From Spirochaetales bacterium (GTDB lineage: Bacteria; Spirochaetota; Spirochaetia; DSM-27196; SLST01), in contig DAOWMR010000015.1 in NCBI GenBank assembly GCA_030642995.1, positions 1 through 17,622 on the forward strand: DNA of 17,622 nucleotides. The letters are read 5' to 3'. Within the stretch, counting starts at the first letter, position 1. Every line of letters starts with the position of its first letter. Positions 782 through 16,271 of this stretch are shown here, piece by piece. A program made the position numbers and the translations under genes. The notes below the pieces were generated by a model. That model was not told the DNA's origin and ran no database searches. It saw only the letters and a program-made list of their open reading frames with translations.

Positions 782-1702
782 GTGAAGAAATGGGTGGTTG
801 CCACCCGTCCATTTGCCCTGCCGGCTTCCACCATGCCGGTGATTTTCGGATTTGTACTGGCCGTTACCATCGGATCAGCAGCCCCCAACTGGGTTCTGTT
901 CTTGATCAGTTTGCCGGCTATGGCGATTCTGCATACCGGCGCCAATCTGCTGAATGATGCCTATGATTACCAAAAAGGAATCGATCGCCGTGTAAACCCC
1001 GTCAGCGGCGGCGTGGTCCGAAAGTGGATAACACCCCGCGAAGCCAAGGTAGCCGGATTCGCCTTTCTCCTGATCGGATTGTTGATGGGGTTGTACATAG
1101 TTTCGGTAGTAGGGATGGCAATCTTCTGGATTGGATTGATTGGTGTGTCTATTGGAATCCTGTATAGCTGGGGGCCGCTGCCGCTGAAATTCAATGCCCT
1201 TGGCGATCTGGCGGTATTCCTCAATTTCGGCGTTCTTGGAGCACTGGGGTCCTGGACGGTTCAGACCGGCTCAGTTTCCTGGGTACCTGCAATCTGGGCG
1301 ATGCCGATGTCGCTGCTGGTGGTGGCGATCCTGCATGCCAACAACTGGCGTGATATTGCGGATGACAGTGCATCCGGAATACGAACCATGGCCAATTTGC
1401 TGGGCGATCCGATTTCGGCACACTACTATTCGGTGCTGCTATTCGGCCCCTTCGCACTCATCATCCTACTGATCATCACCACACGGCTGGTCGATCTCGG
1501 ACCGGAGATGCCCTGGTCGTTTCTGGTAACGCTGCTTGCCGTCCCCGCTGCAATGAAACTCAACCGCAAGGGTCGCCGGAGACATACTTCCGAACAGCCG
1601 CTGGATTTCCTGGCCCTGGATGGAGCTACTGCACAATTCAATCTCCAGTTTGGATTGCTCGGCATTGCGGCCCTGATTATCGATGGTTATTTGCCGTTCT
1701 GA
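782..1702 (+). CDS. menA: 1,4-dihydroxy-2-naphthoate polyprenyltransferase-like protein (UbiA superfamily, MenA type)
   Basis: 306-aa polytopic protein with the UbiA Asp-rich motifs NDAYDYQKGID and NNWRDIADDSASGIRT, plus the MenA-like string YSWGPLPLKFNALGDLAVFLNFG. The start is GTG at 782; ATG at 790 is an alternative. Confidence 0.85.
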   Translation: MKKWVVATRPFALPASTMPVIFGFVLAVTIGSAAPNWVLFLISLPAMAILHTGANLLNDAYDYQKGIDRRVNPVSGGVVRKWITPREAKVAGFAFLLIGLLMGLYIVSVVGMAIFWIGLIGVSIGILYSWGPLPLKFNALGDLAVFLNFGVLGALGSWTVQTGSVSWVPAIWAMPMSLLVVAILHANNWRDIADDSASGIRTMANLLGDPISAHYYSVLLFGPFALIILLIITTRLVDLGPEMPWSFLVTLLAVPAAMKLNRKGRRRHTSEQPLDFLALDGATAQFNLQFGLLGIAALIIDGYLPF

Positions 1703-1730
1703 GTTTCGTAACTGCGGGTGGTTCGATACA

Positions 1731-4604: not shown

Positions 4605-5609
4605 TTATTGTAGACCGTTCCTGATTCTCTTGTTCAGGAACAGAAAAACCAGCGCGGTAATTGCCAGAACGAAACCGCTGTTCCTGAGGATCAATCCCCA
4701 GGTCGCCTCGTTGAGAATGATAGCATCCAGTGCTTTGTAGGCCCAGTAGAAGGGCGACCAGTAGAGCGCGATTTGCCAGCTGTCCGAGAGGAAGATGGCG
4801 CCGAACACCGAGCCGAAAACGGGGATAAACACGATCTTCATACTTGCCACGGCCTCAATGGGTTCGGTGTTAACCACGCCGATGCTGAATCCGATGATGA
4901 TTCCGATAAATGCAACGCTGATGAAGGATAGGGCAACCATGCCGTAGTTGATGTGTTCGAATCCCAGTATCCAGACAATGCCGAAGGCTCCGACAATCGG
5001 CACCAAAAAGGCAATTACGCTCTTTCCTATGATGAACTCTGTCTTCGAGATGGGAGCGACATTGATTGCCGATAGCGTGTTGCTCATCTTCTCTTCAACA
5101 AGGTTCAGGGTGATCAGCATCCCGCCGAAAACCGCACAGAAGATGATGAGGAAATTTGCTCCGTGCTGTTTGAGCGGCGAGAGTTTCCAGCCGATGTCCG
5201 ATATCCGCACCTCAACGGGGAGAACGACACCCTCATTTTCCAGGGCGTTCACCACCGACTGCAGCATTTGGAGGCCACCAGTTGTCTCATTACCCTGCTG
5301 GATGATGGTGTAACCGTCCTGTGTATTGACCAGTCCGAAGAAATCGTCGGTCTTCCGCACGCGGGCGTTGATACGTTCGATGTCCTCCAGCACCTCTACC
5401 TTGCCGTACCCCTCCAGGTACTCAATCACGATGAGATCAACCGAAGGATCAACCGCAATATTGATCGTCGTCGAACCGGCTCCCGGGATAATGACCTTGA
5501 GGAGGAGGAGGGCAAGCAGGAACGGTGCAATGCTGATATACAGGATGAGAAAATCTCGGGTACCGCTCTTCAGGTCTCTGCGGGTTACCGCCAAGATTCT
5601 TTTCAACAT
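4605..5609 (-). CDS. ABC-2 type transporter permease (second permease)
   Basis: The architecture is TM1, then a roughly 150-aa extracytoplasmic domain, then 5 C-terminal TM helices, which is typical of ABC-2 permeases. ATG 5609 ([16 protein letters not shown]) has GAGGAG 9 nt upstream. The track start at 5654 would overlap the upstream permease. Confidence 0.8.
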
Positions 5610-5623
5610 ATGGTTACTCTCCT

Positions 5624-6658
5624 CTATACCGTCAGAGTTTTCTTGAAGCGCCAATTTGACAGCAGAAAGAAAACAACTCCGGCCAGCGTGAAGCCGAGGA
5701 CGTTCGCGTAGATGTACCCTAGGTTGCCGGCCTCATACAGGGTCTCCCTGAATGCAAAGAGCATGGGATAGGAAGGCAGGATCCTGATGATCAGCGGAGA
5801 GAATGCGGGGTTGTAGTAGGACACCGCGGCGAAGGCGAGGACGATGATGCTCATGTACAGCCATCCCATCGCTTTTGTCATGGTGTTGAAGAAACTGGCG
5901 ATGAACAGCCCGAGCGCCGATCCAAAGACGTTCGTAGCGATCAACAGCAGAATGAGGTGCAGGTAGTGGGCCTTGAGTCCTGCGATAAACGCCGCTGCGA
6001 TCAACCCCGACAACAGCCCCGTTACCAGTATGACCCCCACCTTGCCCAGCAGGTAGTGCCAGACTTTGGCAGGAGTGACCGCGAATGCTCGTATCGTGCC
6101 TTCTTCCTTGTCCAGAAAGATGTATGAAGCGATGATAAACAGCCCCATGAACGCAGCGTTCAGCGCCAGGAAAACCGGAAGCATGTTCAGGCGGTCGGAC
6201 AGTTTTTCGACGTTGCCTTCGAGAGTCGTGACGGTTGTCACGTTCTCGTATCCCGGCATTTCTGCCGCGAACCCGGACTCAATCGAGGTTTTGATGATGT
6301 TCCGGAATTTCTCGTCCTCGTACCCCTGCAGGATGTAGTCATAGACGATTCTGCCGTCTTCCAGACCAACGGCCAGACCAACACTGCCGCGGTCATTCGC
6401 GAGTTCGGTTTCCACTTCCTCTCTGGAGGGCAGAAGAATGATGTCGTATCCCTCCTGGGTGAGAGATTCTTCGGCGGCGGCCTGATAGGGTCCTTCCAGA
6501 TCAAGATGCGCGTACACGGTCACCTTTGGCTCGAAATACTCAGGAACGGCAAGAAGCATGACCGCGACGAAAACAAGCGCAAAACCGATCTCGATGTAGA
6601 TATAGAATCCCTTCAGCGATAACTGCATGTCCTTAAGAAAACTGTAGAGCAGTTTCAT
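5624..6658 (-). CDS. ABC-2 type transporter permease (first permease)
   Basis: 344 aa with the same TM1, large loop, 5 TM layout as its neighbour. It starts 1 nt after the ATPase stop codon. Confidence 0.8.
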
Positions 6659-6659
6659 C

Positions 6660-7514
6660 TTACTGAAGCCCCTTGCCGGTCACCTTGATGAAGATCTCTT
6701 CCAGGGTCGCTTCTTTGGTGTGCATCATCTCCACCTTGCCGGAGTTGACGATGTCATTCAGGTGGTGCATGTCCTTTTCGTCGATGAATGACAGGCGCTC
6801 TTTCTTCACGTCGCCGTTGTCCCGGTATTCCACTTCCACGAGTTGTTCCCCGTGCTGGAGCTTGAGGTTTCTCGGGGAATCGATGAGCTTGATCTCGCCG
6901 TCGATGATGAATGCGACGCGGTCGCAGAGTTCATCGGCGACAAACATGTTGTGGGTAGTGAGGAACACCGTCGTTCCCTTTTCCTTCTCACCCTTCACGA
7001 TCTCCTTGATGACGCTTGCAATTGCCGGGTCCAGGCCGGTGGTCGGCTCGTCAAGGAACCACATTTCGGGACTGTTGAGCATGCTTCGTGCAAAAGTAAG
7101 CCGGTGCTTCATGCCCTTGGAGTATTCTCCTGCCCGCTGTGTTGCGACGTGGTCCAGACCAACAAGCTCGAGCAACTCCTTCGGGTCTCGGGTGGGCACG
7201 TCAAAGAGCCTCCGGTAGAACTCGAGGTTCTCCAGCCCCGTGAGCTTGCCGTACACGTTGGACTGTTCGAAGGAGACACCGATCTTGTTGAACATGGCCC
7301 GGGGTGCCTTCTTCACATCGTAGCCTGCGACGGTGACGTTTCCCTTCTGCAGTGGAAGAAGGCCGGTCATGACACCCTGGGTTGTGGATTTGCCGGCGCC
7401 CGAAGGCCCGAGGAATCCGAAAACCTCACCCTTGGCAATTTCGAAACTTGCGTCCCGTACTGCGTATTTCTCATTATGAGAATAGGAATGATACAGCCCT
7501 TCAACCCTGATCAT
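6660..7514 (-). CDS. ABC transporter ATP-binding protein
   Basis: Walker A GPSGAGKST, signature-like YSKGMKHRL, Walker B WFLDEPTTGLD and an H-loop in TTHNM. ATG 7514 (MIRVEGLYHSY) has AAGGAG 10 nt upstream. The track start at 7535 is a GTG lying further inside the SPFH gene. Confidence 0.92.
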   Translation of the reverse strand: MIRVEGLYHSYSHNEKYAVRDASFEIAKGEVFGFLGPSGAGKSTTQGVMTGLLPLQKGNVTVAGYDVKKAPRAMFNKIGVSFEQSNVYGKLTGLENLEFYRRLFDVPTRDPKELLELVGLDHVATQRAGEYSKGMKHRLTFARSMLNSPEMWFLDEPTTGLDPAIASVIKEIVKGEKEKGTTVFLTTHNMFVADELCDRVAFIIDGEIKLIDSPRNLKLQHGEQLVEVEYRDNGDVKKERLSFIDEKDMHHLNDIVNSGKVEMMHTKEATLEEIFIKVTGKGLQ

Positions 7515-8655
7515 CGTTCTGCGACTCCTTTTCACTTGATTCTTCGTCTGCCGGATTCCCGGCCCCCGGCTCTTGTAGCACCTGCTTTCCGTATGCGCTC
7601 GCTCCGAGCACCGTTCCGATGTTCATCGATTCCAGAGCGGAAGCGGGCACCAGCACCAACCCGCCCTTGTCCCGCATGCTTTCGTATATCATGTTCATGG
7701 CCCGCAGTTGCAGCGCCACCGGATCATCCCGATATTGCTCCGCAGCCTTCTTGAACGCTCCGGCAATCTCCACCTCGGCCGAACCGAGAATGATGCGAGA
7801 GCCCCGCTCCCGTTCGGCCTGTGCCTGACGGCTGAGAGCGTCCTCGAGCTCCGAGGGAATCAGGATCTCCTTGAACTCGACGGAGATGATGGTGATTCCC
7901 CATGGGTTGGTCTTGGCATCGACGATCTGCTGGATCTCGCCGCCGAGCCTTTCTCGTTCGCTGAGCAGCGTGGTCAGATCATTTGAACCAATGCTTGCCC
8001 TGAGGGCAGTTTGTGCGCTGAGCGACACCGCCTCCTCGAAGTTCTCCACTTCGAGCACGGCTTTTTGCGCGTCCCAGACCATCCAGAAAGCCAGCGCGTC
8101 TACATTCACCGGGACGGTGTCCCGCGTGAGGCTCTTCTCCGCCGAAAAGTCTGTCACCCGGATTCTCGTATCCACATAGCTGGCGGCCGAATCGATGAGC
8201 GGAAACAGGAGCAGCGCGCCGGGGCCCCGCACCTTGTGGAACTTGCCCAGCCGCAACACGATGATTTTGTCCCACTGGCTGATTACCTCCACGCCCGGCG
8301 CGATGAGAAAGCCGATTGTCAGCACGGCTGCCGCATACTGCAGATCGGTGCCGAACACTACGGGCAGCACCGCCCAGATACCGGCGATGATGGCGATAAC
8401 CATCGGCCAGTACGGCAGGATAAACAATACGGCGGCGGCTGCGATGACTCCGGCGGCCAGGTACGACGTCGTCTCGGGGTCCGGGAGCGAGGTTATCAGT
8501 GCCTGAACTCCAAGACCGAGGGCGATGAAAACCAGGATGACCAACGCCGATATGGTGTTGAATCTGAAATGCCCCCGTTGGCGTCCGTTTGGATGAGTTT
8601 TCCTCTGTGCCGTAAACAGGTTCGAGTGAGACCCAATTGCCTTTGTCATGTTCAT
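7501..8655 (-). CDS. SPFH/band-7 (stomatin/slipin-like) protein with a polytopic N-terminal membrane region
   Basis: SPFH core: IIVLRLGKFHKVRGPGALLLFPLID...VDTRIRV...TRDTVPVNVDALAFW...NPWGITIISVEFKEILIP...AQAERERGSRIILGSAEVEIA. About four hydrophobic helices precede the core. Its start overlaps the GntR stop codon (ATGA at 8652-8655). Confidence 0.9.
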   Translation of the reverse strand: MNMTKAIGSHSNLFTAQRKTHPNGRQRGHFRFNTISALVILVFIALGLGVQALITSLPDPETTSYLAAGVIAAAAVLFILPYWPMVIAIIAGIWAVLPVVFGTDLQYAAAVLTIGFLIAPGVEVISQWDKIIVLRLGKFHKVRGPGALLLFPLIDSAASYVDTRIRVTDFSAEKSLTRDTVPVNVDALAFWMVWDAQKAVLEVENFEEAVSLSAQTALRASIGSNDLTTLLSERERLGGEIQQIVDAKTNPWGITIISVEFKEILIPSELEDALSRQAQAERERGSRIILGSAEVEIAGAFKKAAEQYRDDPVALQLRAMNMIYESMRDKGGLVLVPASALESMNIGTVLGASAYGKQVLQEPGAGNPADEESSEKESQNDDQG

Positions 8656-9059
8656 GTGGTTGCATCCTCCTTGAGGATCGAGAGATACTCAGCCGCTTCA
8701 ACAACGCTGAATCCATACGAAGAAGCCGTGGCCAGGAAAGTGCGAACCAACCCCGCCAGAATCTGTTTACGTTCCTGGGCCGTAAGCTCGATTTTCTTCT
8801 CGCTGATGAAAGTGCCCGTACCCTGCTGCGTATTGACGATCCCGCGGATTTCCAGCTCGCTGTACGCCCGTGCGACGGTATTCGGGTTGATCTTCAGGTC
8901 CACCGCCAGGGCTCGCACCGTCGGCAATTGGTTTCCCGTCCGCAATCTGCCGTCGGCGATGGCCAATTGTGTCTGCATAATGATTTGCCGGTAGAAAGGA
9001 ACTCCGCTCGTCGGATCGAGGAGAAAATGAATACCGCCGGGTTGCCGTTCAGTTGTCAT
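8652..9059 (-). CDS. GntR-family transcriptional regulator, short YtrA-like subfamily
   Basis: 135 aa with a winged-HTH: PFYRQIIMQTQLAIADGRLRTGNQLPTVRALAVDLKINPNTVARAYSELEIRGIVNTQQGTGTFIS. A short C-terminal tail follows. It is the first gene of an ABC transporter operon, as in ytrA-type loci. Confidence 0.9.
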   Translation of the reverse strand: MTTERQPGGIHFLLDPTSGVPFYRQIIMQTQLAIADGRLRTGNQLPTVRALAVDLKINPNTVARAYSELEIRGIVNTQQGTGTFISEKKIELTAQERKQILAGLVRTFLATASSYGFSVVEAAEYLSILKEDATT

Positions 9060-9073
9060 AGACCGAACCCCTG

Positions 9074-9095
9074 TTGTACTGAATCGTTAGTACAA
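9074..9095. promoter_or_regulatory. Perfect inverted repeat TTGTACT-N8-AGTACAA, putative GntR/YtrA operator
   Basis: TTGTACT (9074-9080) and AGTACAA (9089-9095) are exact reverse complements. The repeat lies 15-36 nt upstream of the GntR start codon and just downstream of the candidate -10 element, which is a repressor-roadblock position. Confidence 0.6.
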
Positions 9096-9128: not shown

Positions 9129-9222
9129 GTGTATTCTGCGTGGTGGCAGCAAGGTTAAATTCGAGTACAATTTCAAGGTCTGGATGCGCAACACCGCCGG
9201 ACAATCACACAGGGAAAATCGG

Positions 9223-10137
9223 ATGGCCACGCAACGACGAACCATTGACGACACACGCAAACATCTGACGGCCAAACTGCGTCTCTACTGGAAGCTGATC
9301 AAGAGTCTCCAGACCGGATTGCTCCTTGCGACCGGCGTGGCGGGCTTCATGAGCGCCCGTTGCCCGGCTCTGGACTGGCGGACGCTACTAGGCATGTCCG
9401 GCAGCCTGTTTCTGGCGATAAGCGGCAGCACCGTTCTCAACATGTGGTACGACCGCGACATCGACGCGAAAATGCTGCGCACGTATTGGCGCCCGTTGCC
9501 ATCAGGCGGGGTCAGCCCGCGTGAGACTGTCGTGCTCGGCCTTGTGCTTTCCATACTGGGAGTGGGGTGGGCCGTAGCTATGCAACCGCTCTACGGACTC
9601 GTTGTGTTTGCCGGGCTGTTCATTGACGTCGTGGTCTACACGATCTGGCTCAAACGACGCACCGCCTGGTCCATTGTGTGGGGTGGGATCTCCGGCGGGA
9701 TGCCGATCCTGGCCGGGCGGGTGCTTGGCATTGCCGCTCTGACGGGAGTGGGGCAGATTGACCTGATCGGAGTTTTGCTGTCGCTGGGGATACTGTTCTG
9801 GATTCCCACCCACATCATGACGTTCAACATGCGCTATCATGATGACTATCAGACCGCGGGCGTGCCCACGTTCCCCTTAGCCTACAGTTTTCAGATGACG
9901 CGGGTGACTATCGCGGTGTCCAGTCTCATTGCGGCTCTGACGATGGGTGGAGCAGTAATGCTTCTCGGCATGACCTGGGGATACTTGCGGTTGCTGGCTG
10001 TGCTCAGCACAGCGCTACTCCTGATGGCCGTCTACAGCGTGGCCCGTCCTTCAGAGAAGATGAACTTTGGTCTCTTCAAGTACGCATCGATCTACATGTT
10101 GAGTCTGATGCTCTTGCTCGTCCTGGGGGCGATATGA
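9223..10137 (+). CDS. ctaB: Protoheme IX farnesyltransferase-like protein (heme O synthase, CtaB/CyoE type, UbiA superfamily)
   Basis: NMWYDRDIDAKMLRTYWRPLPSGGVSP matches the CyoE/CtaB motif N-x-x-DRDID-x-x-M-x-RT-x-x-RP. Also present are WLKRRTAWSIVWGGISGGMPILAG and FWIPTHIMTFNMRYHDDYQTAGVPTFP, the latter corresponding to the W-x-PPH...DY-x-x-AG-x-P region. The track start is ATG 9184. ATG 9223 is preferred because a candidate -10 element (TACAAT, 9166-9171) would leave almost no leader for 9184. Confidence 0.8.
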   Translation: MATQRRTIDDTRKHLTAKLRLYWKLIKSLQTGLLLATGVAGFMSARCPALDWRTLLGMSGSLFLAISGSTVLNMWYDRDIDAKMLRTYWRPLPSGGVSPRETVVLGLVLSILGVGWAVAMQPLYGLVVFAGLFIDVVVYTIWLKRRTAWSIVWGGISGGMPILAGRVLGIAALTGVGQIDLIGVLLSLGILFWIPTHIMTFNMRYHDDYQTAGVPTFPLAYSFQMTRVTIAVSSLIAALTMGGAVMLLGMTWGYLRLLAVLSTALLLMAVYSVARPSEKMNFGLFKYASIYMLSLMLLLVLGAI

Positions 10138-10739
10138 AAAAGATCTCCGTCCTTGACCGGATAGTGCTTCTGATCGTCGGAGTGTTAGCGGCCTATCAGA
10201 TAGTCGTGGGGATCGAGGGATTCTGCACGCTGACCGTCTTGTGCTACACGATCGCCTTCGGCGTGCTTATGTTCGCCGCGCTGCTGTTCATCATCTTTGG
10301 GTTTGACATCCTGGACAGCAAGCTGGTCGTCATCGTGGCTGCGACCATCCCGCTCATCTTGTCGCTGGCACTCATCGCTGAATATCTGCCGTCTGTCAGG
10401 ACGGTGTACATGGCGTTTGCCGTCGTCGGATTCGGTGCGCTTGCCGTCACCCGGTATACCGCCTCCGGTGCTGTTGCGACGGTCGTTCTGGCTACGGTAC
10501 ACGGGATCGCCGGGCTGTTGATCTTCAGCCTGCCGATCATTATTGCCGTGCAGGGAAAGACTTCGCCGGGCTTCGCGTTGGTGGGAGTCGGCGGGGCGTT
10601 AATTGGCACCGGCGGGTCGCTGCTCCTCTTCCTGAAATTGGGCAGGCCTATCCTGTCAAGAGATACGATTTTCACCGTGCTGCCCGTGTTGCTGCTGTTC
10701 ATGACGGCGGCATTCGTGGCCGGGTTGGCGATGCGGTGA
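10134..10739 (+). CDS. Hypothetical polytopic membrane protein (201 aa, about 6 TM)
   Basis: Its start overlaps the ctaB-like stop codon (ATGA at 10134-10137). It is strongly hydrophobic throughout, with coding-like codon periodicity. I recognised no family. Confidence 0.7.
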   Translation: MKKISVLDRIVLLIVGVLAAYQIVVGIEGFCTLTVLCYTIAFGVLMFAALLFIIFGFDILDSKLVVIVAATIPLILSLALIAEYLPSVRTVYMAFAVVGFGALAVTRYTASGAVATVVLATVHGIAGLLIFSLPIIIAVQGKTSPGFALVGVGGALIGTGGSLLLFLKLGRPILSRDTIFTVLPVLLLFMTAAFVAGLAMR

Positions 10740-10748
10740 GGGATTGAG

Positions 10749-11180
10749 ATGGTTGGGAATGAACGCCGGCTCTATGCACTGGCAGGGATCATGTGGAGTG
10801 GCGTCGGTGGCTACCTGGTTTTTCTGGCTTATGGTTGGCTCAAGGCGTTACCCTCATTACGTACCGTTCTTCTCGCAATCGCAGCGGTTCTATTTGCGCT
10901 GGTGATCTACCGTTTTGGCTTCTCTAATCTTGCGAAGAAGAACATCAAACGCATTTCGCTGCTCGAAGGCCGAGTATTCATCTGGGCATTTCAGAGTTGG
11001 CAAAGCTACATCATTATCCCGGTTATGATCGGTTTGGGCATCTTTCTCCGTAACTCACCGCTGCCAAAGCAGTATCTGGCCATCATGTACATCGGCATTG
11101 GTGGCGGCTTATTCTTGTCGAGCCTGCACTACTATGTTTGGCTCGTGCGACCATCTGAGTTGGAAAGGAGTGATGAGTGA
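10749..11180 (+). CDS. Hypothetical membrane protein (143 aa, about 4 TM)
   Basis: A GAGGGA-type RBS lies upstream of ATG 10749. Four hydrophobic helices are present. I recognised no family. Confidence 0.65.
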   Translation: MVGNERRLYALAGIMWSGVGGYLVFLAYGWLKALPSLRTVLLAIAAVLFALVIYRFGFSNLAKKNIKRISLLEGRVFIWAFQSWQSYIIIPVMIGLGIFLRNSPLPKQYLAIMYIGIGGGLFLSSLHYYVWLVRPSELERSDE

Positions 11181-11857
11181 TGAATACAATGGCCAAGATC
11201 TTGTGGGTGATCGCAATCATACTGATTGGACTGACGGCGGCAATAACGCTGGTGAGCGGCATCGGTACGTACTGCGTTGCCTGGAACGCCGAGCAATACG
11301 CGGAATTTGCCAACTTTGAGCCGTACAAACCGCTCTACAAGGCGATTGTCGTTCTCACGATTATGGTCGCGCTCGTTGCTGTCGTGGATGTTTATGGCAT
11401 GATACGACGCAAGAAGTGGGCGTACCTGGCCACGCTGTTCACGCTGATCGCAGGTATTGTCGTGGGTGGTACGCACGTGTATTACTCGACCATGTTGCGG
11501 GGAACCGGTATGCCGGGTACCGTCCGGGTTTATCTCTCAGTACTCACACTCGTCGTCCTGCTATTGCTGCGGATTCCCGGCATCTGGCAGGCGATCAACT
11601 CCGGGAAACCATCTGCGGGATCGGGGGCTGGAACGGCAGCCGGTCTGGCGATGAGTGTGTGTGGATTGGCCGTCGTTGCGACGCCCATGTGGGCCGGCCC
11701 GACGCATACTTCTGCCGGCTACAATTGGGTGAATGTCCTGTTGGTGCCCCTGATTGTGGGTGGCGTGGTGTTGATGCTGGCGGGGATAAGTCTGTTGGTG
11801 TTTCCCAAACTGCAAGTGCGTATCGGGAAGCGTCCCCAACCAGTCACGGCACATTAG
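11177..11857 (+). CDS. Hypothetical polytopic membrane protein (about 225 aa), sharing a C-terminal module with the proteins at 14544-15341 and 15352-16188
   Basis: AAGGAG at 11165-11170 precedes possible starts at GTG 11177 and ATG 11180. The start overlaps the upstream stop codon. It contains MIRRKKWAYLATLF...LLLLRIPGIWQAI, which resembles LKKKKWTVPLGVF...VIILLPGTQKLI in the 265-aa protein. Confidence 0.65.
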   Translation: MMNTMAKILWVIAIILIGLTAAITLVSGIGTYCVAWNAEQYAEFANFEPYKPLYKAIVVLTIMVALVAVVDVYGMIRRKKWAYLATLFTLIAGIVVGGTHVYYSTMLRGTGMPGTVRVYLSVLTLVVLLLLRIPGIWQAINSGKPSAGSGAGTAAGLAMSVCGLAVVATPMWAGPTHTSAGYNWVNVLLVPLIVGGVVLMLAGISLLVFPKLQVRIGKRPQPVTAH

Positions 11858-12819
11858 GGATTGCGAGCACAACGGAATCCAACTGCCGGACCATAGTACA
11901 CCGGCCCGGCGCTATTCTGTTTCCAGACACGCAGATCCATTTCATAGGTATAAAAACTGCCGCCGCGCATATGACGATAATGCTGGTTCGAGAAATCATC
12001 TCCAACCCACTGCCAGACATTCCCGGCCATGTCATAGAGGCCGTACGGGCTGGCCGAATCGAGTGTTTCGTAATCTTCGTAGGTGTCACCGTTGTAGAAA
12101 CCCACGGGAGTGGTATTGCCCAGCTTCCCAAACATCTTTTCGAACAAGTCGAAAGAAGAATAGGAATTGGCGTTGTTGCCATGAATTTCAGTGCCCCAGG
12201 GGAAAGGCAATCCATACCCGTCCACTAGTTTGGTACCACGAGCGGCTTTCTCCCATTCGGTATCACTGGGGAGCCGCCAACCGTAGAACTCGGCGTACGC
12301 ATTGGCGCCGAACCATGAGACCATTGTCATGGGGTGATTGGCGTATTCAGGGATTGCTGTGAATGATTGCCCATTAAAGGTCAACCGCAAGCCTTCTTCA
12401 TCCAGCGGGATGTAGAGTTTGTCCCCGGCCTTGATTTCAAACTCGTGCTTGTAACCCTGGAAAGGTTCGCCTGCATAGAAACCATACACACCTTCAAGAA
12501 CCGCAACGGATTCCCCGAACTCAACTTCCACCTCACCCACACCAATCTCGCCGGCAGCCAAAGCTTCGTTGAGAAAATCGGCATACTGTTGGTTGGTTAC
12601 GTCGGTGACCATGATCTCATAGTCGTAGTCGACCATGGTCATGTGATCGTGCTGCCCGTAGGGGAACTCACCGGCGGGAATGACAGCCCAGGAATCGGGG
12701 TCAATCCCGGTATCGATAGAGGGCGGTACAATTGCTCCGACGCTGGATGTCGGCGTACAGGCGGTTGTCAACAAAGCAAGCACCGTAAGCAAGATCATGA
12801 GATGTATCAAACGTTTCAT
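11854..12819 (-). CDS. FGE-sulfatase (SUMF1) fold lipoprotein lacking the FGE catalytic cysteine pair
   Basis: The signal peptide MKRLIHLMILLTVLALLTTAC suggests a probable lipobox with Cys21. Fold motifs are WAVIPAGEFPYG, HPMTMVSWFGANAYAEFYGWRLPSDTEWEKAARG, YGLYDMAGNVWQWV, RGGSF and GFRCARNP. The only cysteines are Cys21 and the GFRC cysteine. Its start overlaps the stop codon of the upstream 12-TM gene (ATGA at 12816-12819). Confidence 0.88.
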   Translation of the reverse strand: MKRLIHLMILLTVLALLTTACTPTSSVGAIVPPSIDTGIDPDSWAVIPAGEFPYGQHDHMTMVDYDYEIMVTDVTNQQYADFLNEALAAGEIGVGEVEVEFGESVAVLEGVYGFYAGEPFQGYKHEFEIKAGDKLYIPLDEEGLRLTFNGQSFTAIPEYANHPMTMVSWFGANAYAEFYGWRLPSDTEWEKAARGTKLVDGYGLPFPWGTEIHGNNANSYSSFDLFEKMFGKLGNTTPVGFYNGDTYEDYETLDSASPYGLYDMAGNVWQWVGDDFSNQHYRHMRGGSFYTYEMDLRVWKQNSAGPVYYGPAVGFRCARNP

Positions 12820-14357
12820 TCTGACACCCCCTTCAGGGTTTCTTCGAGTTTTTCCAGTTTTCGCTTCTGTTCTGCGATTTCAGACTCGGCGCTGAGTTTC
12901 GTCTCAGCCGCCAGTTCCTGCGCCCAGCGGCCGTTCCTGGTGAGGAGATCGTACAATCGCCACAGCATGAAGACACACAGAATGATGAGCACAACCCCCA
13001 GGCCGATATCGGTCAACAGCATGGTCCAGTTGACGATGGATTGCTGCGCAACTTCGGTGACGAAGAGGCGCTTCATCGAAAAGATAGTCACCGCGCCAAA
13101 AGCCAGATCGGACATCAGGATCAATACCCACCCGAACCATTTGCGGGCTTTGCCCTTCAGGCCCGACAGATCCGCGAAATACATCAGGATGATGGTTGCG
13201 ATCAGCGCTGCGAGGATGTGCCAGTGTCCGGTAAGGGTGACCCGTTCTTCCCGATGCGGCCAGACACGGAATATCTCCTCCAATTTGACTGCCAGAAAAA
13301 TGCCAACGCCACTGACGGTAAAATTCATGAAGACCATCTGCCAACCCGGGCCGAACTTCAACGGGTCGTGCAGGAGCGCCTTGATTTTCTGCCAGGCGTT
13401 GGGTTTTTCGATACCCAGTTCCGCGATGCGATTCTTGATTTGTTGATCCCAGGAGAAGATCACATATAGCAGGGCGGCTGTCATCACCAGGACGGACCCA
13501 ATATAGATGATGTTGTGTGCCCACGTGAACCACACAATGGACAGCGCGCCAATCGTGATCACAATTGTGCCGGAAATCATCAGCCACATGGCGATCTTGT
13601 GGAAGATCCCTTTGAACTTCATCCAGCGGCCCACAATCAATGTGAGGGCGACCGCGATCAGGGTCAGCATGATATGCAGGTGGCCTACAATGGCCTTCTG
13701 CAAAGCTGTCTTCAGGGGGATGCGGATCAGGTCTTCCGCCAGGAAGGTTTCGTGGCCGTTACCCCAATACGAGCCGGTCACCGCGCCAAAAGAAGCGGAG
13801 ATCAACGCGGCAGCAACCATCACGAAGAAGGCGGCTCGCTCCAGATCAATACCTTTCCGGGTGTGTGCGTAGGGCGAATCCTCCGGCAAGAGGTATTCCT
13901 TTTTCCAGGGCCACAACGCGGCGCCTAACAGCAAACCCGCGAAGAAGACTAACGACTGGCCAACCAGGAACAGACCGTGGTAGACGAAATTGTGGCCAAA
14001 GTAGCCAAAGATCAAGCCGAAAATGATAGCCGTCAAATAGCCGATGGTGATGGTGGTGTTGATCATGGTCTGTTCGTGTTTTTTCATCGGCACCATACCG
14101 GTGATGAAATACACTTCAATTGCCAGGATCGTCATGGCAATGGTGTGATAGAGCATGATGATTCGCCCTTCACGTTCAGCCTGAACCAAATCCATATTGA
14201 GGAGGCGGACGGTGATGTCTCTGACACCCCATTCGACCATCGGGCCGGAGAGCGTTCCCCAGACGGCGGTTGCCACCGCAACGACAGCCATTGCGACCAG
14301 CGCCAATCCCTTGGTCGAAGTGAAGAGATAGGTAAGTCGTTTTTTTAGTCCTTGCAT
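12816..14357 (-). CDS. 12-TM integral membrane protein (513 aa) with three 4-TM repeats and conserved intramembrane His motifs; candidate divergent heme-copper-oxidase-subunit-I-like protein (hypothesis)
   Basis: ATG 14357 (MQGLKKRL) has GGAGG 7 nt upstream; the track start at 14381 is a TTG. Twelve hydrophobic helices are present, and the positive-inside rule gives N-in/C-in. His motifs are YH71TIAM, GH122NFVYH127G, GH226LH228IM, AH281NIIYIG and GH378WH380IL. The C-terminal roughly 35 aa look like a coiled coil (AEQKRKLEKLEETLKG). Confidence 0.85.
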   Translation of the reverse strand: MQGLKKRLTYLFTSTKGLALVAMAVVAVATAVWGTLSGPMVEWGVRDITVRLLNMDLVQAEREGRIIMLYHTIAMTILAIEVYFITGMVPMKKHEQTMINTTITIGYLTAIIFGLIFGYFGHNFVYHGLFLVGQSLVFFAGLLLGAALWPWKKEYLLPEDSPYAHTRKGIDLERAAFFVMVAAALISASFGAVTGSYWGNGHETFLAEDLIRIPLKTALQKAIVGHLHIMLTLIAVALTLIVGRWMKFKGIFHKIAMWLMISGTIVITIGALSIVWFTWAHNIIYIGSVLVMTAALLYVIFSWDQQIKNRIAELGIEKPNAWQKIKALLHDPLKFGPGWQMVFMNFTVSGVGIFLAVKLEEIFRVWPHREERVTLTGHWHILAALIATIILMYFADLSGLKGKARKWFGWVLILMSDLAFGAVTIFSMKRLFVTEVAQQSIVNWTMLLTDIGLGVVLIILCVFMLWRLYDLLTRNGRWAQELAAETKLSAESEIAEQKRKLEKLEETLKGVSE

Positions 14358-14438
14358 ATCTATGCCTCCAAATAGGGACAAACAGTCAACTTGATTGTGA
14401 AAGGTTCCACGAAGTTATCATGAAATATCGAGAGAGTC

Positions 14439-14454
14439 CTTGACCAAGGTCAAG
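14439..14454. promoter_or_regulatory. 16-bp perfect palindrome CTTGACC-AA-GGTCAAG (core TTGAC-N4-GTCAA), putative operator/promoter element upstream of the 12-TM gene
   Basis: Both halves are exact reverse complements. The centre lies about 90 nt upstream of ATG 14357. A near-identical element occurs at 16256-16271, and a conserved gene-proximal flank (ACTCTYTCGA..ATTT) follows both copies. Confidence 0.6.
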
Positions 14455-14469
14455 TTCCAAGGAAACCAC

Positions 14470-14497
14470 CCCCTCTCCGGCAAGAACCAGAGAGGGG
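14470..14497 (-). terminator. Stem-loop, possible intrinsic terminator after the 265-aa membrane protein gene
   Basis: CCCCTCTC (14470-14477) pairs with GAGAGGGG (14490-14497) across a 12-nt loop, and two further G:C pairs are possible inside the loop. On the minus strand it is followed by GTGGTTTCCTTGG, which is only moderately T-rich. It lies between the stop codon at 14544 and the palindrome at 14439-14454. Confidence 0.35.
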
Positions 14498-14543
14498 CGA
14501 TCTCGCGGGCGAAGGCAGAAGAAGGATTTACCCTGACTTCAGA

Positions 14544-15341
14544 TCAACTTTCGTGTTCACCGGAGTCTGCAATCAGCTTCTGTGTGCCTGGCAGCAAGAT
14601 GATGACAAGAAGCACCGTGCTGATAACCGGAGCCGGCAAGAACATTGAGAATCGACCCAATTGCACCGTGTTGGTGATTCCCATCGGGTAAGCACCCATC
14701 ATGGACATCATGGCTGCAAAAACACCCAACGGCACAGTCCACTTCTTCTTCTTGAGGACAGCAAAGATGAACATTGCCCAGGCGGCGGCGCCCCACCAGG
14801 TAACTTGCTGCGACATGGCAAACATACCGTTCATGAAGCTATCGTCCACGGACAACTGGAAATAGGCAATCACGCCGACCCCGTCCATAAACGTCAAGAC
14901 ATATGCCAAACCGGCCACAAAGAGCAGGGCGATGACCTTCATTTTGACACGGCCAATCAGCAGCATACCAAACCATAGAACGGTCGCCAGCAGGAAGACC
15001 CAAATCGTGGGAAAAGGCATCCCGATGCTGGAGGGTGGGATGATCGGGAAAAAGCCGACAAGCATCTGGACGGTGGCCGCCACAGTACCCCAGAACCAGG
15101 CCCATTCCAGTTTTTTCACGAAGCCGTAGAGCACGGCCCCCCACAATGCGCCGGCAGTTATGCCCAGCCAGCCAAGCAGGGCGAAGACGATCTGAACAGT
15201 AACGGCTTCATCCGGGCGACCACCGGCAATTTTGCCCGCAATGGTCGGGTTGTAGATGTCCGCCATCAAGTAGAATGTCAGCAATCCGGTCAGGACACCG
15301 ACTATGGCGAGTACAATACCGAGCTTATTGTTTCCTTTCAT
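14544..15341 (-). CDS. Hypothetical polytopic membrane protein (265 aa), paralog of the upstream gene
   Basis: ATG 15341 (MKGNNKLG) has AGGAGA 6 nt upstream (15353-15348), and that RBS overlaps the upstream TAG stop codon. About 8 hydrophobic helices are present. It shares these motifs with the 278-aa protein: VLAIVGVL vs VLAIVIGLL; KKLEW vs KGEEW; QQVTWW vs QDFTWW; KKKKW vs KRKGW. Confidence 0.75.
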   Translation of the reverse strand: MKGNNKLGIVLAIVGVLTGLLTFYLMADIYNPTIAGKIAGGRPDEAVTVQIVFALLGWLGITAGALWGAVLYGFVKKLEWAWFWGTVAATVQMLVGFFPIIPPSSIGMPFPTIWVFLLATVLWFGMLLIGRVKMKVIALLFVAGLAYVLTFMDGVGVIAYFQLSVDDSFMNGMFAMSQQVTWWGAAAWAMFIFAVLKKKKWTVPLGVFAAMMSMMGAYPMGITNTVQLGRFSMFLPAPVISTVLLVIILLPGTQKLIADSGEHES

Positions 15342-15351
15342 GATGATTCTC

Positions 15352-16188
15352 CTATTGATCATCCTTGATCAGCTTCTTCTTGAAATACGGAACCAACGTG
15401 AAGAAAAGGACGCCGATGGACAACAGTGCACCGTAAAGATAGTCCATCGTCTTCGTGCGGATAAACTGCGTGGGGGCGTCAATCGCCAGGATGGCAACCG
15501 CAGCAATGACGGCAAACCACCAGCCTTTGCGTTTGCCGACAGCCAACAGCGGAATGGAGATGACCAGCAGGATAACCGCCACCCAGTTAACCTCACCGGC
15601 CCAGCTGAACAACCACCACGTGAAGTCCTGATACATGGGATATCCAGGGCGGGTCCACATGGTTCGCTGGGCGCCAATACCGATGGTGAAGGCGTGAGTA
15701 GCCAACATGCCGATGAAAGTCAGGGCGCCGAAACGAGTCCACTTTTGCATTCTTTCGGCCTTGCGCAGGAAAATGAAGCTCCAATAACCTACCAGACCAG
15801 TGACCGAAATCAACAGCGGGATCGGGAAGCCGTCCACCCAACTGACGTACGGGAGGAACATGAACATACCGCCAATTGCAGGCAGCGCAAACAGAGTTAC
15901 GGCAAGCGGATAGGTCCACTCTTCGCCTTTCCTGATTTCTTGTGAGATCACGATCAGGGCGGCGCCTGCGACAAAAATGACGGCTCGCCAGATCGGATAG
16001 AAGAAATCAAAGAGCGGAATCCCGCTTTCAAACGTGGGGTGACCGGCGTTGATATGATCGATCAACCCGACCAATACTCGTTCAAGCGATTTCTGGACGA
16101 TGAAAGGGACCACGCCCACCATCAACAGGCCAATAACAATGGCGAGAACCGACATGACCGTTCGGTTTTTCTGTGAAGTTTCTTTCAT
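15352..16188 (-). CDS. Hypothetical polytopic membrane protein (278 aa)
   Basis: ATG 16188 (MKETSQKN) has AGGAGA 6 nt upstream (16200-16195); the track start at 16227 has no RBS. About 8 hydrophobic helices are present. I recognised no family. Confidence 0.75.
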   Translation of the reverse strand: MKETSQKNRTVMSVLAIVIGLLMVGVVPFIVQKSLERVLVGLIDHINAGHPTFESGIPLFDFFYPIWRAVIFVAGAALIVISQEIRKGEEWTYPLAVTLFALPAIGGMFMFLPYVSWVDGFPIPLLISVTGLVGYWSFIFLRKAERMQKWTRFGALTFIGMLATHAFTIGIGAQRTMWTRPGYPMYQDFTWWLFSWAGEVNWVAVILLVISIPLLAVGKRKGWWFAVIAAVAILAIDAPTQFIRTKTMDYLYGALLSIGVLFFTLVPYFKKKLIKDDQ

Positions 16189-16255
16189 TTTCACTCTCCT
16201 AGGAAAAAAATTGCGTTCTAGTGTCATGAGAATCGCAGATAAATTCGAAAGAGTA

Positions 16256-16271
16256 ATTGACCCAGGTCAAT
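16256..16271. promoter_or_regulatory. 16-bp perfect palindrome ATTGACC-CA-GGTCAAT (core TTGAC-N4-GTCAA), second copy of the element at 14439-14454
   Basis: Both halves are exact reverse complements. The centre lies about 75 nt upstream of ATG 16188 on the minus strand. It sits in the divergent intergenic region shared with the RpiR gene. Confidence 0.6.

Follow-up and report, generated by a model that had tools for sequence, protein, structure and literature searches.

A conserved gene cluster encoding a heme O synthase-like protein and a 12-helix membrane protein with a predicted heme-copper oxidase subunit I fold

The gene cluster

The analysed stretch of DNA (the window) comprises 17,622 nucleotides of a contig from a Spirochaetales bacterium. 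Eight consecutive genes at 9184–16227 encode membrane proteins or lipoproteins, and all eight open reading frames of the original prediction are present at the following coordinates. The plus strand carries the gene of a heme O synthase-like UbiA prenyltransferase of the CtaB/CyoE type (9184–10137, 317 aa, possible alternative start at 9223), followed by the genes of p201 (10134–10739, 201 aa, six transmembrane helices), p143 (10749–11180, 143 aa, four helices) and p226 (11177–11857, 226 aa, six helices). The minus strand carries the genes of p291 (15352–16227, eight helices), the polytopic p272 (14544–15362, 272 aa), the 12-helix protein p513 (12816–14357, 513 aa) and a lipoprotein with the FGE-sulfatase fold of a non-catalytic type (11854–12819, 321 aa). 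The last of these products is a lipoprotein that has a signal peptide and Cys21; the others are hydrophobic polytopic proteins.

The predicted overlaps are real. An ATGA at 10134–10137 is shared by the ctaB-like stop and the p201 start, the overlap at 11177–11180 has the sequence GTGA, and at 11854–11857 the stop codons of the two convergent blocks overlap (TAG on the plus strand at 11855–11857, TAA on the minus strand at 11854–11856). An additional ATGA overlap at 12816–12819 joins the p513 stop to the FGE start. Three gene starts were corrected. The p513 gene most likely starts at 14357, preceded by a GGAGG Shine–Dalgarno sequence, and not at 14381; the p291 and p272 genes probably start at 16188 (giving 278 aa instead of 291 aa) and 15341, respectively. 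The claimed paralogy of p272 and p291 holds only in part, at the profile level: hhalign gives a probability of 97.7% (E 2e-12), and pairwise BLASTP gives no match.

Only two recognizable families had been claimed, and this also held. The UbiA/CtaB-like protein and the FGE-sulfatase protein alone match Pfam or NCBIfam; no family match was found there for p226, none above threshold for p143, and no Pfam or PDB match for p201. A CxxCH motif is excluded in all eight open reading frames by the cysteine counts. Cupredoxin, subunit III, CtaA and Sco domains were not found among ten large open reading frames scanned outside the cluster, as predicted.

The heme O synthase-like protein and the FGE-fold lipoprotein

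The CtaB-like protein matches Pfam UbiA (E 1e-46), and by far its best NCBIfam model is that of heme o synthase (TIGR01473): the score is 205.2 bits, the cutoff is 210.3, and the next family reaches 56 bits. The window protein falls 5 bits short of the curated cutoff. Its ortholog in locus L003 scores 221.9 bits, above the cutoff, and the UbiA proteins of loci with p513 relatives score 177–222 bits. According to these scores, the UbiA proteins linked to p513 are of the heme O synthase type. Comparison of the window protein with Escherichia coli CyoE by hhalign gives 99.1%.

The lipoprotein contains a full-length FGE-sulfatase domain (Pfam E 2.3e-36). In the PDB its nearest relative is 1y4j (E 4.8e-14), the inactive paralog pFGE/SUMF2, and the alignment of the two shows that the catalytic cysteine pair of FGE is replaced. 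The only conserved cysteines are the lipobox Cys21 and Cys317 of a GFRC motif.

Conservation of the gene neighbourhood

The gene order was compared in 80 species-level relatives, where the denominators vary by gene (78, 71, 68 and 72 loci). The FGE-like gene directly follows the p513 gene, co-directionally, in 78 of 78 loci, and the heme O synthase-like gene follows this pair, again co-directionally, in 68 of 71. As those 68 loci have the ctaB-like block in the same direction as the p513 and FGE genes, the convergent layout of the window, although real, is a derived local inversion, common only to the closest relative. A p513-like gene and a heme O synthase gene occur together in hundreds of species of Anaerolineae and also in one Hodarchaeales (Asgard) archaeon. 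The link is retained at 32–59% identity, including lineages only 32–44% identical, one of which is the archaeon. The gene orders are Crp followed by p506–FGE–UbiA in L095, Crp followed by p469–UbiA with overlapping genes in L089, and p201-like–p535–UbiA in L092 (Hodarchaeales). An adjacent heme O synthase gene is missing in some distant homologs (L007, L094 and L090). No canonical COX1 gene was found within 8–10 kb in 87 loci.

The small membrane proteins are conserved to different degrees. The p201 gene is located downstream in 60 of 68 loci, a p201 paralog lies directly 5' of the p513 gene in 34 of 72, and homologs are found directly upstream of the p513-like gene in L092 (HMM E 2.8e-32) and in Infirmifilum lucidum, L094 (E 8.8e-33). 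His123 of p201 is near-invariant, and a Gly-rich motif is present. Homologs of p226, an accessory protein with conserved Cys33 and His177, are located downstream of p201 in 41 related loci; one is also found in L095 (E 7e-68). Homologs of p143, a variable accessory, occur in the same operon in 13 related loci. The p272 gene is upstream of the p513 gene in many loci, and a p272 homolog follows ctaB in L089 (E 1e-63).

The eight proteins might not cooperate at all, their genes being adjacent by chance or through recent rearrangement. In the window, the two blocks do lie on opposite strands with separate promoter regions. Against this, the order is kept in 68 of 71 species-level loci, several genes overlap, and the link persists in the lineages 32–59% identical, including the archaeon. 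This explanation has practically no room left and is rejected, being ruled out by the conserved gene order across relatives. The linkage of the eight genes is not chance, and they form one conserved unit. Its deeply conserved core consists of p201, p513 and the heme O synthase, which are partners in both the Hodarchaeales locus and Anaerolineae; the FGE-like lipoprotein and most of the small membrane proteins were added in particular lineages.

The original prediction of a non-canonical heme-dependent membrane complex could have failed here in two ways: an unconserved neighbourhood, with the ctaB-like gene travelling with a canonical oxidase operon elsewhere, or confident matches of the unknown proteins to unrelated characterized systems. 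Neither was observed, and the reading is not refuted.

Predicted structure and invariant histidines of p513

No Pfam, NCBIfam or PDB sequence match was found for p513. The AlphaFold2 model has a pLDDT of 87.1 and a pTM of 0.88, and the top Foldseek matches of this model are subunit I of heme-copper oxidases (HCO), with a probability of 1.0; the nearest structural relatives are all terminal reductases. The 12-helix subunit I fold of p513, with the N-terminus inside, is thus a high-confidence prediction. The claim rests on one predicted model, because no sequence or profile method links p513 to COX1, NorB or CyoB. A Pfam search of 14 family members at E up to 10 and a PDB profile search with p513 gave no match, and hhalign against COX1, NorB and CyoB gave probabilities of 1.3% or less. 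The sole local hhalign match with E. coli CyoB pairs GHWHIL with AHFHNV of helix X (H419/H421), and a low-stringency collinear alignment maps H226 of p513 to the CuB ligand H284. Both are non-significant.

An invariant set of seven histidines extends from Anaerolineae to Hodarchaeales, Promethearchaeota and Infirmifilum, and so spans both Bacteria and Archaea. The TM2 histidine and the HxH motifs of TM6 and TM10 are located at one depth (relative depth 0.30–0.41), and the TM4 and TM8 histidines are at the outer surface, H127, H281, R65 and E371 having relative depths of 0.03–0.12. The invariant polar residues are confined to the outer third of the membrane and to outer loops, with none in the inner half. 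Lys and Arg residues number 14 inside and seven outside. Three four-helix repeats are detectable by sequence and align the H(x)H and Glu/Arg motifs of TM2, TM6 and TM10. At least 90% conservation is observed at 255 of 521 positions (about 50%) across 78 species. The canonical CuB His–His and the active-site tyrosine are absent, and the three-histidine CuB/FeB set, which combines one helix VI histidine with the His–His after helix VII, does not occur in this form.

Regulation and electron supply

Two exact TTGAC-N4-GTCAA sites of the Crp/Fnr type occur in the window: the palindrome TTGACCAAGGTCAA at 14440–14453, 83–96 bp upstream of the p513 gene start, and TTGACCCAGGTCAA at 16257–16270, 69–82 bp upstream of the probable p291 start. 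Both precede minus-strand units, in two promoter regions. The expected number is 0.01, and two or more sites were obtained in none of 200 shuffles. The identical box is found exactly once per locus in six related loci, 40–100 bp upstream of the p291-like gene in L018, L052, L067, L077 and L081 and about 100 bp upstream in L050. Relatives also show the same or related Crp-type boxes and a divergent Crp/Fnr gene.

No electron-donor subunit was identified in the window, and cytochrome c and cupredoxin subunits are both missing from the cluster. On the quinone side, the window encodes MenA. In 22 loci the operon includes the gene of a NapH/NosR-like Fer4_5 membrane protein, which hints at electron input. 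In some loci, multiheme cytochrome genes are located near the cluster.

Proposed function and alternatives

The explanation we favour, with moderate confidence, is that the cluster encodes an undescribed and very divergent member of the HCO structural superfamily, with p513 as the proposed catalytic subunit, together with its cofactor supply; the cofactors and the activity are inferred. Points against it are the fold assignment without support from sequence, the missing canonical CuB/FeB set, the sub-cutoff score of the CtaB-like protein, the distant homologs without an adjacent heme O synthase gene and the lack of an identified electron donor. The heme-dependent complex of the original prediction is supported, and the predicted subunit I fold adds a structural basis to it. 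Of the two roles proposed there, redox is favoured over sensory, because p513 has no output domain.

The assignment of histidines to cofactors is inferred from helix order, depth and the non-significant alignments. His71 of TM2 and His380 of TM10 would hold a low-spin heme, like helices II and X of known oxidases, and His378 of TM10 would be the proximal ligand of a high-spin heme, putatively heme O from the CtaB-like enzyme encoded alongside. The distal site may be rebuilt from His226 and His228 of TM6 and His281 of TM8, perhaps with Glu208 or Glu371, and would bind a non-heme metal. An additional site may be made by the second TM6 histidine together with His127, which is symmetry-related. 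As the cluster in the window has no cytochrome c or cupredoxin subunit, the inferred electron source is menaquinol, or the NapH-like iron–sulfur protein in some relatives. As there is neither a conserved cytoplasmic proton channel nor an active-site tyrosine, a small oxidant would be reduced at the outer face without pumping. The enzyme is thus probably quinol-fed and non-pumping, although whether NO or O2 is the substrate is unproven; without direct evidence, NO is slightly preferred to O2 or peroxide. A Crp/Fnr-family regulator would control expression, p201 would be a core subunit, and the FGE-like lipoprotein, translationally coupled to p513, may be a Chloroflexota-specific outer-face subunit or maturation factor.

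Alternatively, p513 might be a multi-heme membrane cytochrome, serving as a conduit for electrons and not as a terminal reductase. Each four-helix repeat would give histidine ligands for up to three hemes in one plane, and the quinol pool would supply electrons that p513 hands on to an extracytoplasmic partner, for instance the FGE-like lipoprotein. The aligned repeat motifs, the five histidines at equal depth with two symmetry-related histidines at the outer ends of TM4 and TM8, the lack of the canonical CuB His–His and tyrosine, the coupling of the FGE-like gene and the nearby multiheme cytochrome genes are consistent with a conduit. However, the FGE-like protein has no redox-active cysteine pair or obvious cofactor motif and is missing from distant lineages that retain the p513, ctaB and p201 genes. 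The nearest structural relatives also speak against it. A heme O requirement is typical of oxygen- or NO-reactive high-spin sites and not of simple electron-transfer cytochromes. We consider this alternative unlikely.

Less likely still, p513 might handle the prenyltransferase product without redox catalysis, as a chaperone, exporter or store for heme O or another prenylated tetrapyrrole or quinone, or as an assembly factor for an oxidase whose genes lie elsewhere. The tight and ancient linkage of p513 and UbiA, with overlapping genes in L089, and the lack of an electron-donor subunit favour this, and the sub-cutoff score of the CtaB-like protein makes a different prenyl acceptor conceivable. 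Against it, the fold is that of the catalytic subunit and not of known heme chaperones or transporters, the conservation is extreme, and the invariant residues form a plane of histidines like a fixed cofactor site. Furthermore, a canonical oxidase is linked in none of the 87 loci, and some family members have no nearby UbiA gene.

Comparison with known systems

Like NnrS, a 12-helix heme- and copper-binding NO-responsive membrane protein, p513 has 12 helices and is rich in histidine. NnrS is under a Crp/Fnr-family regulator in denitrifiers, and in Sinorhizobium meliloti pSymA its gene adjoins an FGE-fold gene, as the p513 gene does. At the sequence level the two differ: p513 has no Pfam NnrS match, and the profile–profile probability against a nine-sequence NnrS alignment is below 1%. 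Unlike p513, NnrS keeps only three invariant histidines in this alignment (H67, H312 and H334), in a different pattern.

The FGE-like lipoprotein resembles pFGE/SUMF2 in having the FGE-sulfatase domain without the catalytic cysteines. It also resembles NirV of pSymA, where the FGE-fold gene adjoins metallo-redox genes (nirK and nnrS), with marginal similarity (27% identity over 138 residues, E 2e-4). Unlike both, it carries a lipid anchor, and its translation is coupled to that of a membrane protein. To our knowledge, no function is known for NirV or for the FGE-like lipoprotein.

The arrangement of p513 is similar to those of CcoN (cbb3) and NorB (cNOR), in the C-family and NOR branch of the HCOs, with 12 helices, both termini inside, and the helix II histidine and helix X HxH roughly a third of the way into the membrane from its outer face. 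However, p513 is only 7–9% identical to them with no Pfam COX1 or profile match, lacks the His–His after helix VII and the helix VI glutamate, and has instead the TM6 HxH and one histidine each at the outer end of TM4 and of TM8. Its repeats are detectable by sequence, no cytochrome c partner (CcoO or NorC) accompanies it in the cluster, and it is linked to heme O synthase, whereas cbb3 and cNOR use heme B.

Like the p513 cluster, the E. coli bo3 quinol oxidase operon cyoABCDE carries its own heme O synthase gene, cyoE. Cytochrome bo3 has no cytochrome c subunit and quinol is its donor; the p513 cluster likewise has no cytochrome c. Unlike bo3, the cluster has no detected homologs of subunits II, III or IV (p201, p226 and p143 did not match CyoC or CyoD in hhalign), and p513 lacks the HPEVY tyrosine, the CuB His–His and the D and K channel residues.

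Quinol-dependent NOR, eNOR, sNOR, gNOR and nNOR are treated as members of the HCO superfamily, and eNOR operons carry CtaA, so that some newer NOR families are linked to genes of farnesylated-heme biosynthesis (PMC11214002). For its part, p513 has no Pfam COX1 match even at E 10. By the criteria of the same study (PMC11214002), p513 is like the NORs in lacking a conserved active-site tyrosine and a conserved polar cytoplasmic pathway. As a proposed divergent HCO with altered active-site ligands and no cross-linked tyrosine, it also resembles qNOR and the newer families. If the proposed reading is true, p513 would represent an undescribed branch of the oxygen/nitric-oxide reductase superfamily, without detectable sequence similarity to the known members.

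Predicted fold of p513

The protein p513 is a His-rich membrane protein with 12 transmembrane (TM) helices. Its gene is located on the minus strand (12816-14381), and the best start at 14357 gives 513 residues. No match to p513 was detected in Pfam or NCBIfam, and 14 diverse members of its family showed no match to Pfam COX1 (PF00115) at E up to 10. Neither the sequence nor the profile of p513 matched any PDB chain at E up to 10, and the hhalign probabilities against CyoB and NorB were 1.3% or less. PDB profile searches using the p513 family and the families of its unassigned polytopic neighbours p291/p272 and p201 (named by length in residues) also gave no matches.

The AlphaFold2 model of p513, calculated with a 14-sequence alignment (pLDDT 87.1, pTM 0.88), consists of 12 TM helices and a C-terminal soluble helix. 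According to the model, p513 is predicted to have the 12-TM core with a pseudo-threefold arrangement that is expected of subunit I of the heme-copper oxidoreductases (HCOs). The structural comparison value was 21.9 for CcoN of cbb3 (3mk7_A; 386 residues aligned, 9% identity), 20.3 for NorB (4xyd_A), 20.1 and 19.7 for mitochondrial COX1, 19.8 for ba3, 18.9 for bo3 and 16.5 for qNOR. The best unrelated fold gave 11.8. Foldseek likewise ranked HCO subunit I at the top (probability 1.0, TM-score 0.45-0.57), with weak E-values. The evidence for the HCO fold is a single predicted model.

Conserved residues and internal symmetry of p513

The His residues invariant in both Bacteria and Archaea are H71 (TM2), H127 (TM4), H226 and H228 (TM6), H281 (TM8), and H378 and H380 (TM10). 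Other invariant residues include Y70, R65, R364, E208 and E371. The topology places the N-terminus inside, with 14 Lys and Arg residues inside and 7 outside. The five His residues of TM2, TM6 and TM10 are located at relative depths of 0.30-0.41 from the outer face, and H127, H281, R65 and E371 are located at 0.03-0.12. No invariant polar residue was found in the inner membrane half. Thus, p513, with its model-predicted HCO fold, carries a plane of invariant His residues near the outer face.

The low-spin and proximal heme ligands expected of an HCO have possible counterparts in the invariant H71 of TM2 and in H378-W-H380 of TM10, at matching depths; the geometry is unchecked. The sole local hhalign match between p513 and Escherichia coli CyoB pairs GHWHIL with AHFHNV of helix X (H419 and H421), and is not significant (E 0.11). 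In a collinear low-stringency alignment with CyoB, H226 corresponds to the CuB ligand H284, and H228 corresponds to E286. According to the invariant His positions and these non-significant alignments, which provide no cofactor geometry, the heme-ligand pattern of helices II and X is apparently kept. The canonical three-His set of CuB or FeB (a helix VI His, and His-His after helix VII) is not present in p513. In its place are H226-x-H228 in TM6 and a single invariant H281 that opens TM8, and there is no His-His in TM7 or in the TM7-8 turn. The O2 reductases of the A, B and C families are also defined by an active-site Tyr, cross-linked to His, and by conserved proton channel(s) from the cytoplasm (PMC11214002). 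Neither was found in p513, in which a single Tyr, Y70 of TM2, is invariant, and none in TM6 or TM7. A rival explanation, which we consider less likely, is that p513 is a multi-heme electron conduit.

The three 4-helix units of p513 are related by sequence according to hhalign. Residues 165-318 and 325-475 were aligned with a probability of 96.9% (E 1.5e-10), and E208...H226xH228 is paired with an LEE motif...H378xH380. TM3-6 and TM7-10 were aligned with a probability of 88%, and H127 is paired with H281. Using the same protocol, the best unrelated membrane family scored 13.6%. To our knowledge, threefold symmetry is not visible in the sequences of known oxidases and is seen only in their structures. 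With a threefold repeat detectable in the sequence of p513, the origin of the oxidase fold by triplication can be tested directly.

Two local features of p513 were also observed. The C-terminal soluble helix (residues 477-512 of p513, listed as P0001; about 12819-12929) is long, charged and coiled-coil-like; it is present in the Anaerolineae proteins, but in the homologs from distant lineages and archaea it is either missing or cannot be aligned. Within the gene, an exact 16-nt direct repeat, GTCACCGCGCCAAAAG, is located at 13087-13102 and 13777-13792, 690 nt apart. Read from the protein sequence, it encodes FGAVT in TM5 as well as in TM11. Its chance occurrence in 7.7 kb was estimated to be unlikely, and it is out of register with the 4-helix repeats.

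Gene cluster and its surroundings

On the plus strand, a gene for a heme O synthase-like prenyltransferase (ctaB-like, 9184-10137) is followed by the genes of the polytopic proteins p201 (10134-10739), p143 (10749-11180) and p226 (11177-11857). On the minus strand, the genes of p291 (15352-16227), p272 (14544-15362) and p513 are followed by that of an FGE-sulfatase-fold lipoprotein (FGE-like, 11854-12819). The original prediction described an ATGA overlap (10134-10137) and an overlap at 11177-11180 within this cluster, and a convergent overlap at 11854-11857. These were confirmed, the second as GTGA and the convergent one as an overlap of stop codons; a further ATGA overlap is present between the p513 and FGE-like genes. 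It also counted eight membrane-protein or lipoprotein genes, and the eight products are indeed polytopic or lipid-anchored. The reported absence of CxxCH holds for all of them, as the motif is impossible in any of the eight. UbiA and FGE-sulfatase are the sole domains recognised by Pfam and NCBIfam, in agreement with the two families named before. The cupredoxin, subunit III, CtaA and Sco genes reported as missing were not found in the rest of the window either.

The remaining genes of the window encode MenA, malic enzyme, an HD protein, an ABC-2 exporter with SPFH and GntR genes, and an RpiR regulator. The MenA-type 1,4-dihydroxy-2-naphthoate prenyltransferase (782-1702, plus strand; TIGR00751 116.6 bits, cutoff 102) is the second UbiA-family gene, and its end overlaps the start of the malic enzyme gene (1683-3407). 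As the window encodes this enzyme, the organism is inferred to make menaquinone, a likely electron donor pool. Scans of the window for Rfam families, tRNAs and repeats gave nothing relevant. The 124 bp that separate the GntR gene (8652-9059, minus strand) from the ctaB-like gene contain a perfect palindrome, TTGTAC-N10-GTACAA (9074-9095). It is possibly the operator of the short GntR regulator for the SPFH/ABC-2 exporter operon (4605-9059), and an effect on the relocated ctaB block is now conceivable as well.

Conservation of the neighbourhood

More than 3000 homolog clusters of p513 were found at 90% identity. The best listed matches (72-88% identity, 504-540 residues) are unnamed or 'hypothetical' and derive almost entirely from metagenome-assembled genomes (MAGs) of Anaerolineae. 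In a scan with one genome per GTDB species, 411 genomes contained a p513 relative; the family is thus present in 411 or more species-level Anaerolineae genomes. The MAG names suggest anaerobic reactors (AnMBR), sediments and subsurface sites.

Synteny was counted by tblastn of the window proteins against the 80 best of the 411 genomes' loci, and the denominators differ by feature. The FGE-like gene adjoins the p513 gene in the same direction in 78 of 78 loci. The ctaB-like gene is co-directional within 2.5 kb in 68 of 71 loci (inverted in one, absent from two), and p201 is located downstream in 60 of 68. Upstream, p272/p291 are present in 36 of 54 loci, and a p201 paralog (p201') immediately precedes the p513 gene in 34 of 72. 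The usual order is [Crp/Fnr, divergent] p291-p272-(p201')-p513-FGE-ctaB-p201-p226/p143. No canonical COX1 was found in any of 87 loci; this result concerns the loci only, not whole genomes. The 80 best loci are all from MAGs, and none belongs to a cultured bacterium.

The p513 cluster is therefore a conserved operon. The original prediction would have been refuted by a neighbourhood not conserved in relatives. As the linkage is conserved and canonical COX1 is missing from the 87 loci, this test failed to refute it, and the rival explanation that the cluster genes are adjacent by chance is refuted. The claimed linkage held, but the convergent layout is not conserved. The inverted ctaB block was found only in the window and in its closest relative, L008 (88% identity), and the repeat scan of the window found no inverted repeats flanking the block.

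L008 (JAHOYX010000112.1) bears the label of a Spirochaetales MAG and L069 that of Bacteroidota; Chloroflexota is the source of all the other loci. L008 and L069 are likely to be mis-binned contigs rather than transfers.

Partner proteins

The ctaB-like protein shows a full-length match to Pfam UbiA and contains the NxxxDxxxD motif (N86-MWY-D90-RDI-D94); the conservation of D90, D92 and D94 across 67 orthologs is 90% or higher. Its score against TIGR01473, the heme O synthase equivalog, is 205.2 with a curated cutoff of 210.3, and the orthologs from L003, L002, L092 and L089 score 221.9, 210.2, 204.4 and 177.2, respectively. Heme O synthase is always the best family for the cluster CtaB proteins, by more than 100 bits, and the hhalign probability of the window's ctaB-like protein against CyoE is 99.1%. 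A heme O synthase-type enzyme is an obligatory companion of p513 in most lineages. Given this companionship, p513 might instead be a protein for heme O handling or assembly; we consider this explanation unlikely.

The FGE-like protein combines a lipoprotein signal with a complete FGE-sulfatase domain (PF03781, E 2.3e-36, residues 43-319). The Cys pair that binds Cu(I) in the FGE active site is not present; the only Cys residues are Cys21 of the lipobox and Cys317 (GFRC), and the ...LCHESYC... segment of FGE (5nxl) is aligned with ...YTYEM.... The closest PDB relative is the inactive paralog pFGE. Among the polytopic proteins, p201 contains a Gly-rich helix and His123, which is nearly invariant, and p272 and p291 are paralogs at the profile level. 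The p291 model shows two four-helix bundles with no specific match.

In 22 related loci, the operon includes a NapH/NosR-like Fer4_5 membrane iron-sulfur protein, which is possibly an electron-input module. This protein, exemplified by the 281-residue membrane polyferredoxin of L016 (3840-4685; two Fer4_5 motifs and a 2x[4Fe-4S] domain), is encoded on the same strand upstream of the p513 gene and is absent from the window. CopD-like, DUF4405, DUF423 and cytochrome c genes occur sporadically in related loci. In L002, L005/L010, L025 and others, a gene for a small cytochrome c (Cytochrome_CBB3 domain) recurs about 5.7 kb downstream of the p513 gene. It is accompanied by a divergent Crp/Fnr gene of its own, and next come a MamF/MmsF-like and an HSP70-FHA gene. 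The same lineage has genes for multiheme cytochromes and DUF4405 proteins upstream. In L001 (16705-18840), genes for an HMA-domain chaperone and a copper-type P1B ATPase are located downstream of the cluster, just past transposase and integrase remnants, together with another two Crp/Fnr genes.

Distant relatives and the core of the cluster

A search of 1.8 billion cluster representatives matched 294 clusters, and a few full-length relatives showed 22-44% identity. Three distant relatives come from archaea, namely Ca. Hodarchaeales, Promethearchaeota and Infirmifilum lucidum, which is cultured. L095, with a p513 relative of 59% identity, has a Crp gene and then p506-FGE-UbiA. L089 (44%) has a Crp gene, overlapping p469 and UbiA genes, and then a p272 homolog. 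The Hodarchaeales locus L092 (32%) has the order p201 homolog (E 2.8e-32)-p535-UbiA. In L094 of I. lucidum, a p201 homolog (E 8.8e-33) is immediately upstream. The UbiA proteins beside p513 relatives score 177-222 bits against TIGR01473, the top family every time. As p201 (L092 and L094) and CtaB (L092, L089 and L095) recur beside distant p513 relatives, and FGE-like, p226, p143, p272 and p291 are found in bacterial loci only, p201, p513 and CtaB constitute the core.

L094 (CP062310, 124069-141421) comes from a cultured hyperthermophilic archaeon. Its p201-like/p513-like pair adjoins BREX-like defence genes (BrxL and a large methyltransferase) and many small unknown ORFs, and no UbiA or FGE gene was found nearby.

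Regulatory elements

Of 80 loci, 41 contain a Crp/Fnr-family gene, which is often divergent from the gene that opens the operon; the window contains none. The cluster-associated regulators gave generic NCBIfam matches only. The window contains exactly two TTGAC-N4-GTCAA palindromes (14440-14453 and 16257-16270; 0.01 expected), which precede the starts of the p513 and p291 genes by about 70-95 bp. The same palindrome occurs once in each of six relatives, and in the five checked for position it is just upstream of the p291-like gene. TTTGC-N6-GCAAA and TGTGA-N6-TCACA boxes were found in other relatives. Crp/Fnr-type control elements are thus present at the cluster; there are no expression data. 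The canonical FNR box, TTGAT-N4-ATCAA, was rejected as the element: it is absent from the window and was found in only one of 28 Crp-operon intergenic regions.

Proposed function and significance

On balance, we favour the reading of the cluster as a divergent HCO-fold heme enzyme, by a modest margin; heme or metal binding and activity are inferred. In this reading, p513 would hold two hemes in canonical positions, the high-spin one being heme O, and the distal metal site would be remodelled. The proposed electron donor is menaquinol or an iron-sulfur protein, since MenA is encoded in the window and neither a cytochrome c nor a CuA subunit is present in the window cluster. Protons would be drawn from the outer side without pumping, and the substrate would be a small oxidant. 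Since the active-site Tyr is lacking, the criteria in PMC11214002 speak against efficient O2 reduction and favour NO. This argument is weak, and our confidence in NO as the specific substrate is fairly low.

A bolder and less likely reading is possible, in which the p513 family branched off as a deep sister to every known HCO and is ancestral-like and nearly symmetric. Three sequence-related 4-helix units would each supply His ligands in one plane, and the cofactor set would be different, e.g. three hemes, or two hemes and a non-canonical metal site. The family would use heme O, would be common to Bacteria and Archaea including Hodarchaeales, and would serve anaerobes as an NO or O2 scavenger. 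If true, this reading would account for the 'orphan' heme O synthase genes of anaerobes and Asgard archaea and provide a living model of the oxidase fold arising by triplication.

Almost all aerobic respiration is carried out by HCOs, as is most of the biological production of N2O. The p513 family is a gap in the family catalogues, as it escaped every sequence and profile search run. Should p513 be a reductase of O2 or NO, a common enzyme is being overlooked when oxygen tolerance and N2O sources are surveyed by genes. The link between p513 and heme O synthase in a Hodarchaeales genome is relevant to the debate on the oxygen metabolism of those archaea that are most closely related to eukaryotes. 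In two studies of Asgard archaea, heme O biosynthesis genes are taken as markers of canonical oxidases, and heme O synthase is treated solely alongside canonical Cox (bioRxiv 10.1101/2025.02.26.640444, 10.1101/2024.07.04.601786).

Comparison with known systems

NnrS was rejected as the family of p513. PF05940 gave no matches, and the hhalign probability against an alignment of 9 NnrS sequences from plasmid records was 0.4-0.7%. NnrS of S. meliloti has HxH-like motifs and adjoins nirK and nirV; in NnrS, however, only H67, H312 and H334 are invariant His residues, and the HVH motif is not conserved. NirV was rejected as the identity of the FGE-like protein, since the similarity is marginal only.

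The cNOR and qNOR enzymes have an FeB site formed by three His and a helix VI Glu. This site has no equivalent in p513, in which TM6 carries no Glu and the invariant Glu residues are located in the TM5-6 loop (E208) and at the start of TM10 (E371). Their cytochrome c subunit or fused N-terminal domain also has no counterpart, as the cluster contains no CxxCH and p513 has no N-terminal extension. Twelve HCO families have been listed (PMC11214002), and no description of the p513 family was found in the full-text literature searched. As p513 fails the tests of sequence membership and of the CuB/FeB ligands, it is filed as a new divergent HCO variant outside the 12 described families. The closest likeness is to subunit I of the C-family and NOR enzymes: the predicted fold of p513 is alike, and its working may, by inference, be alike too.
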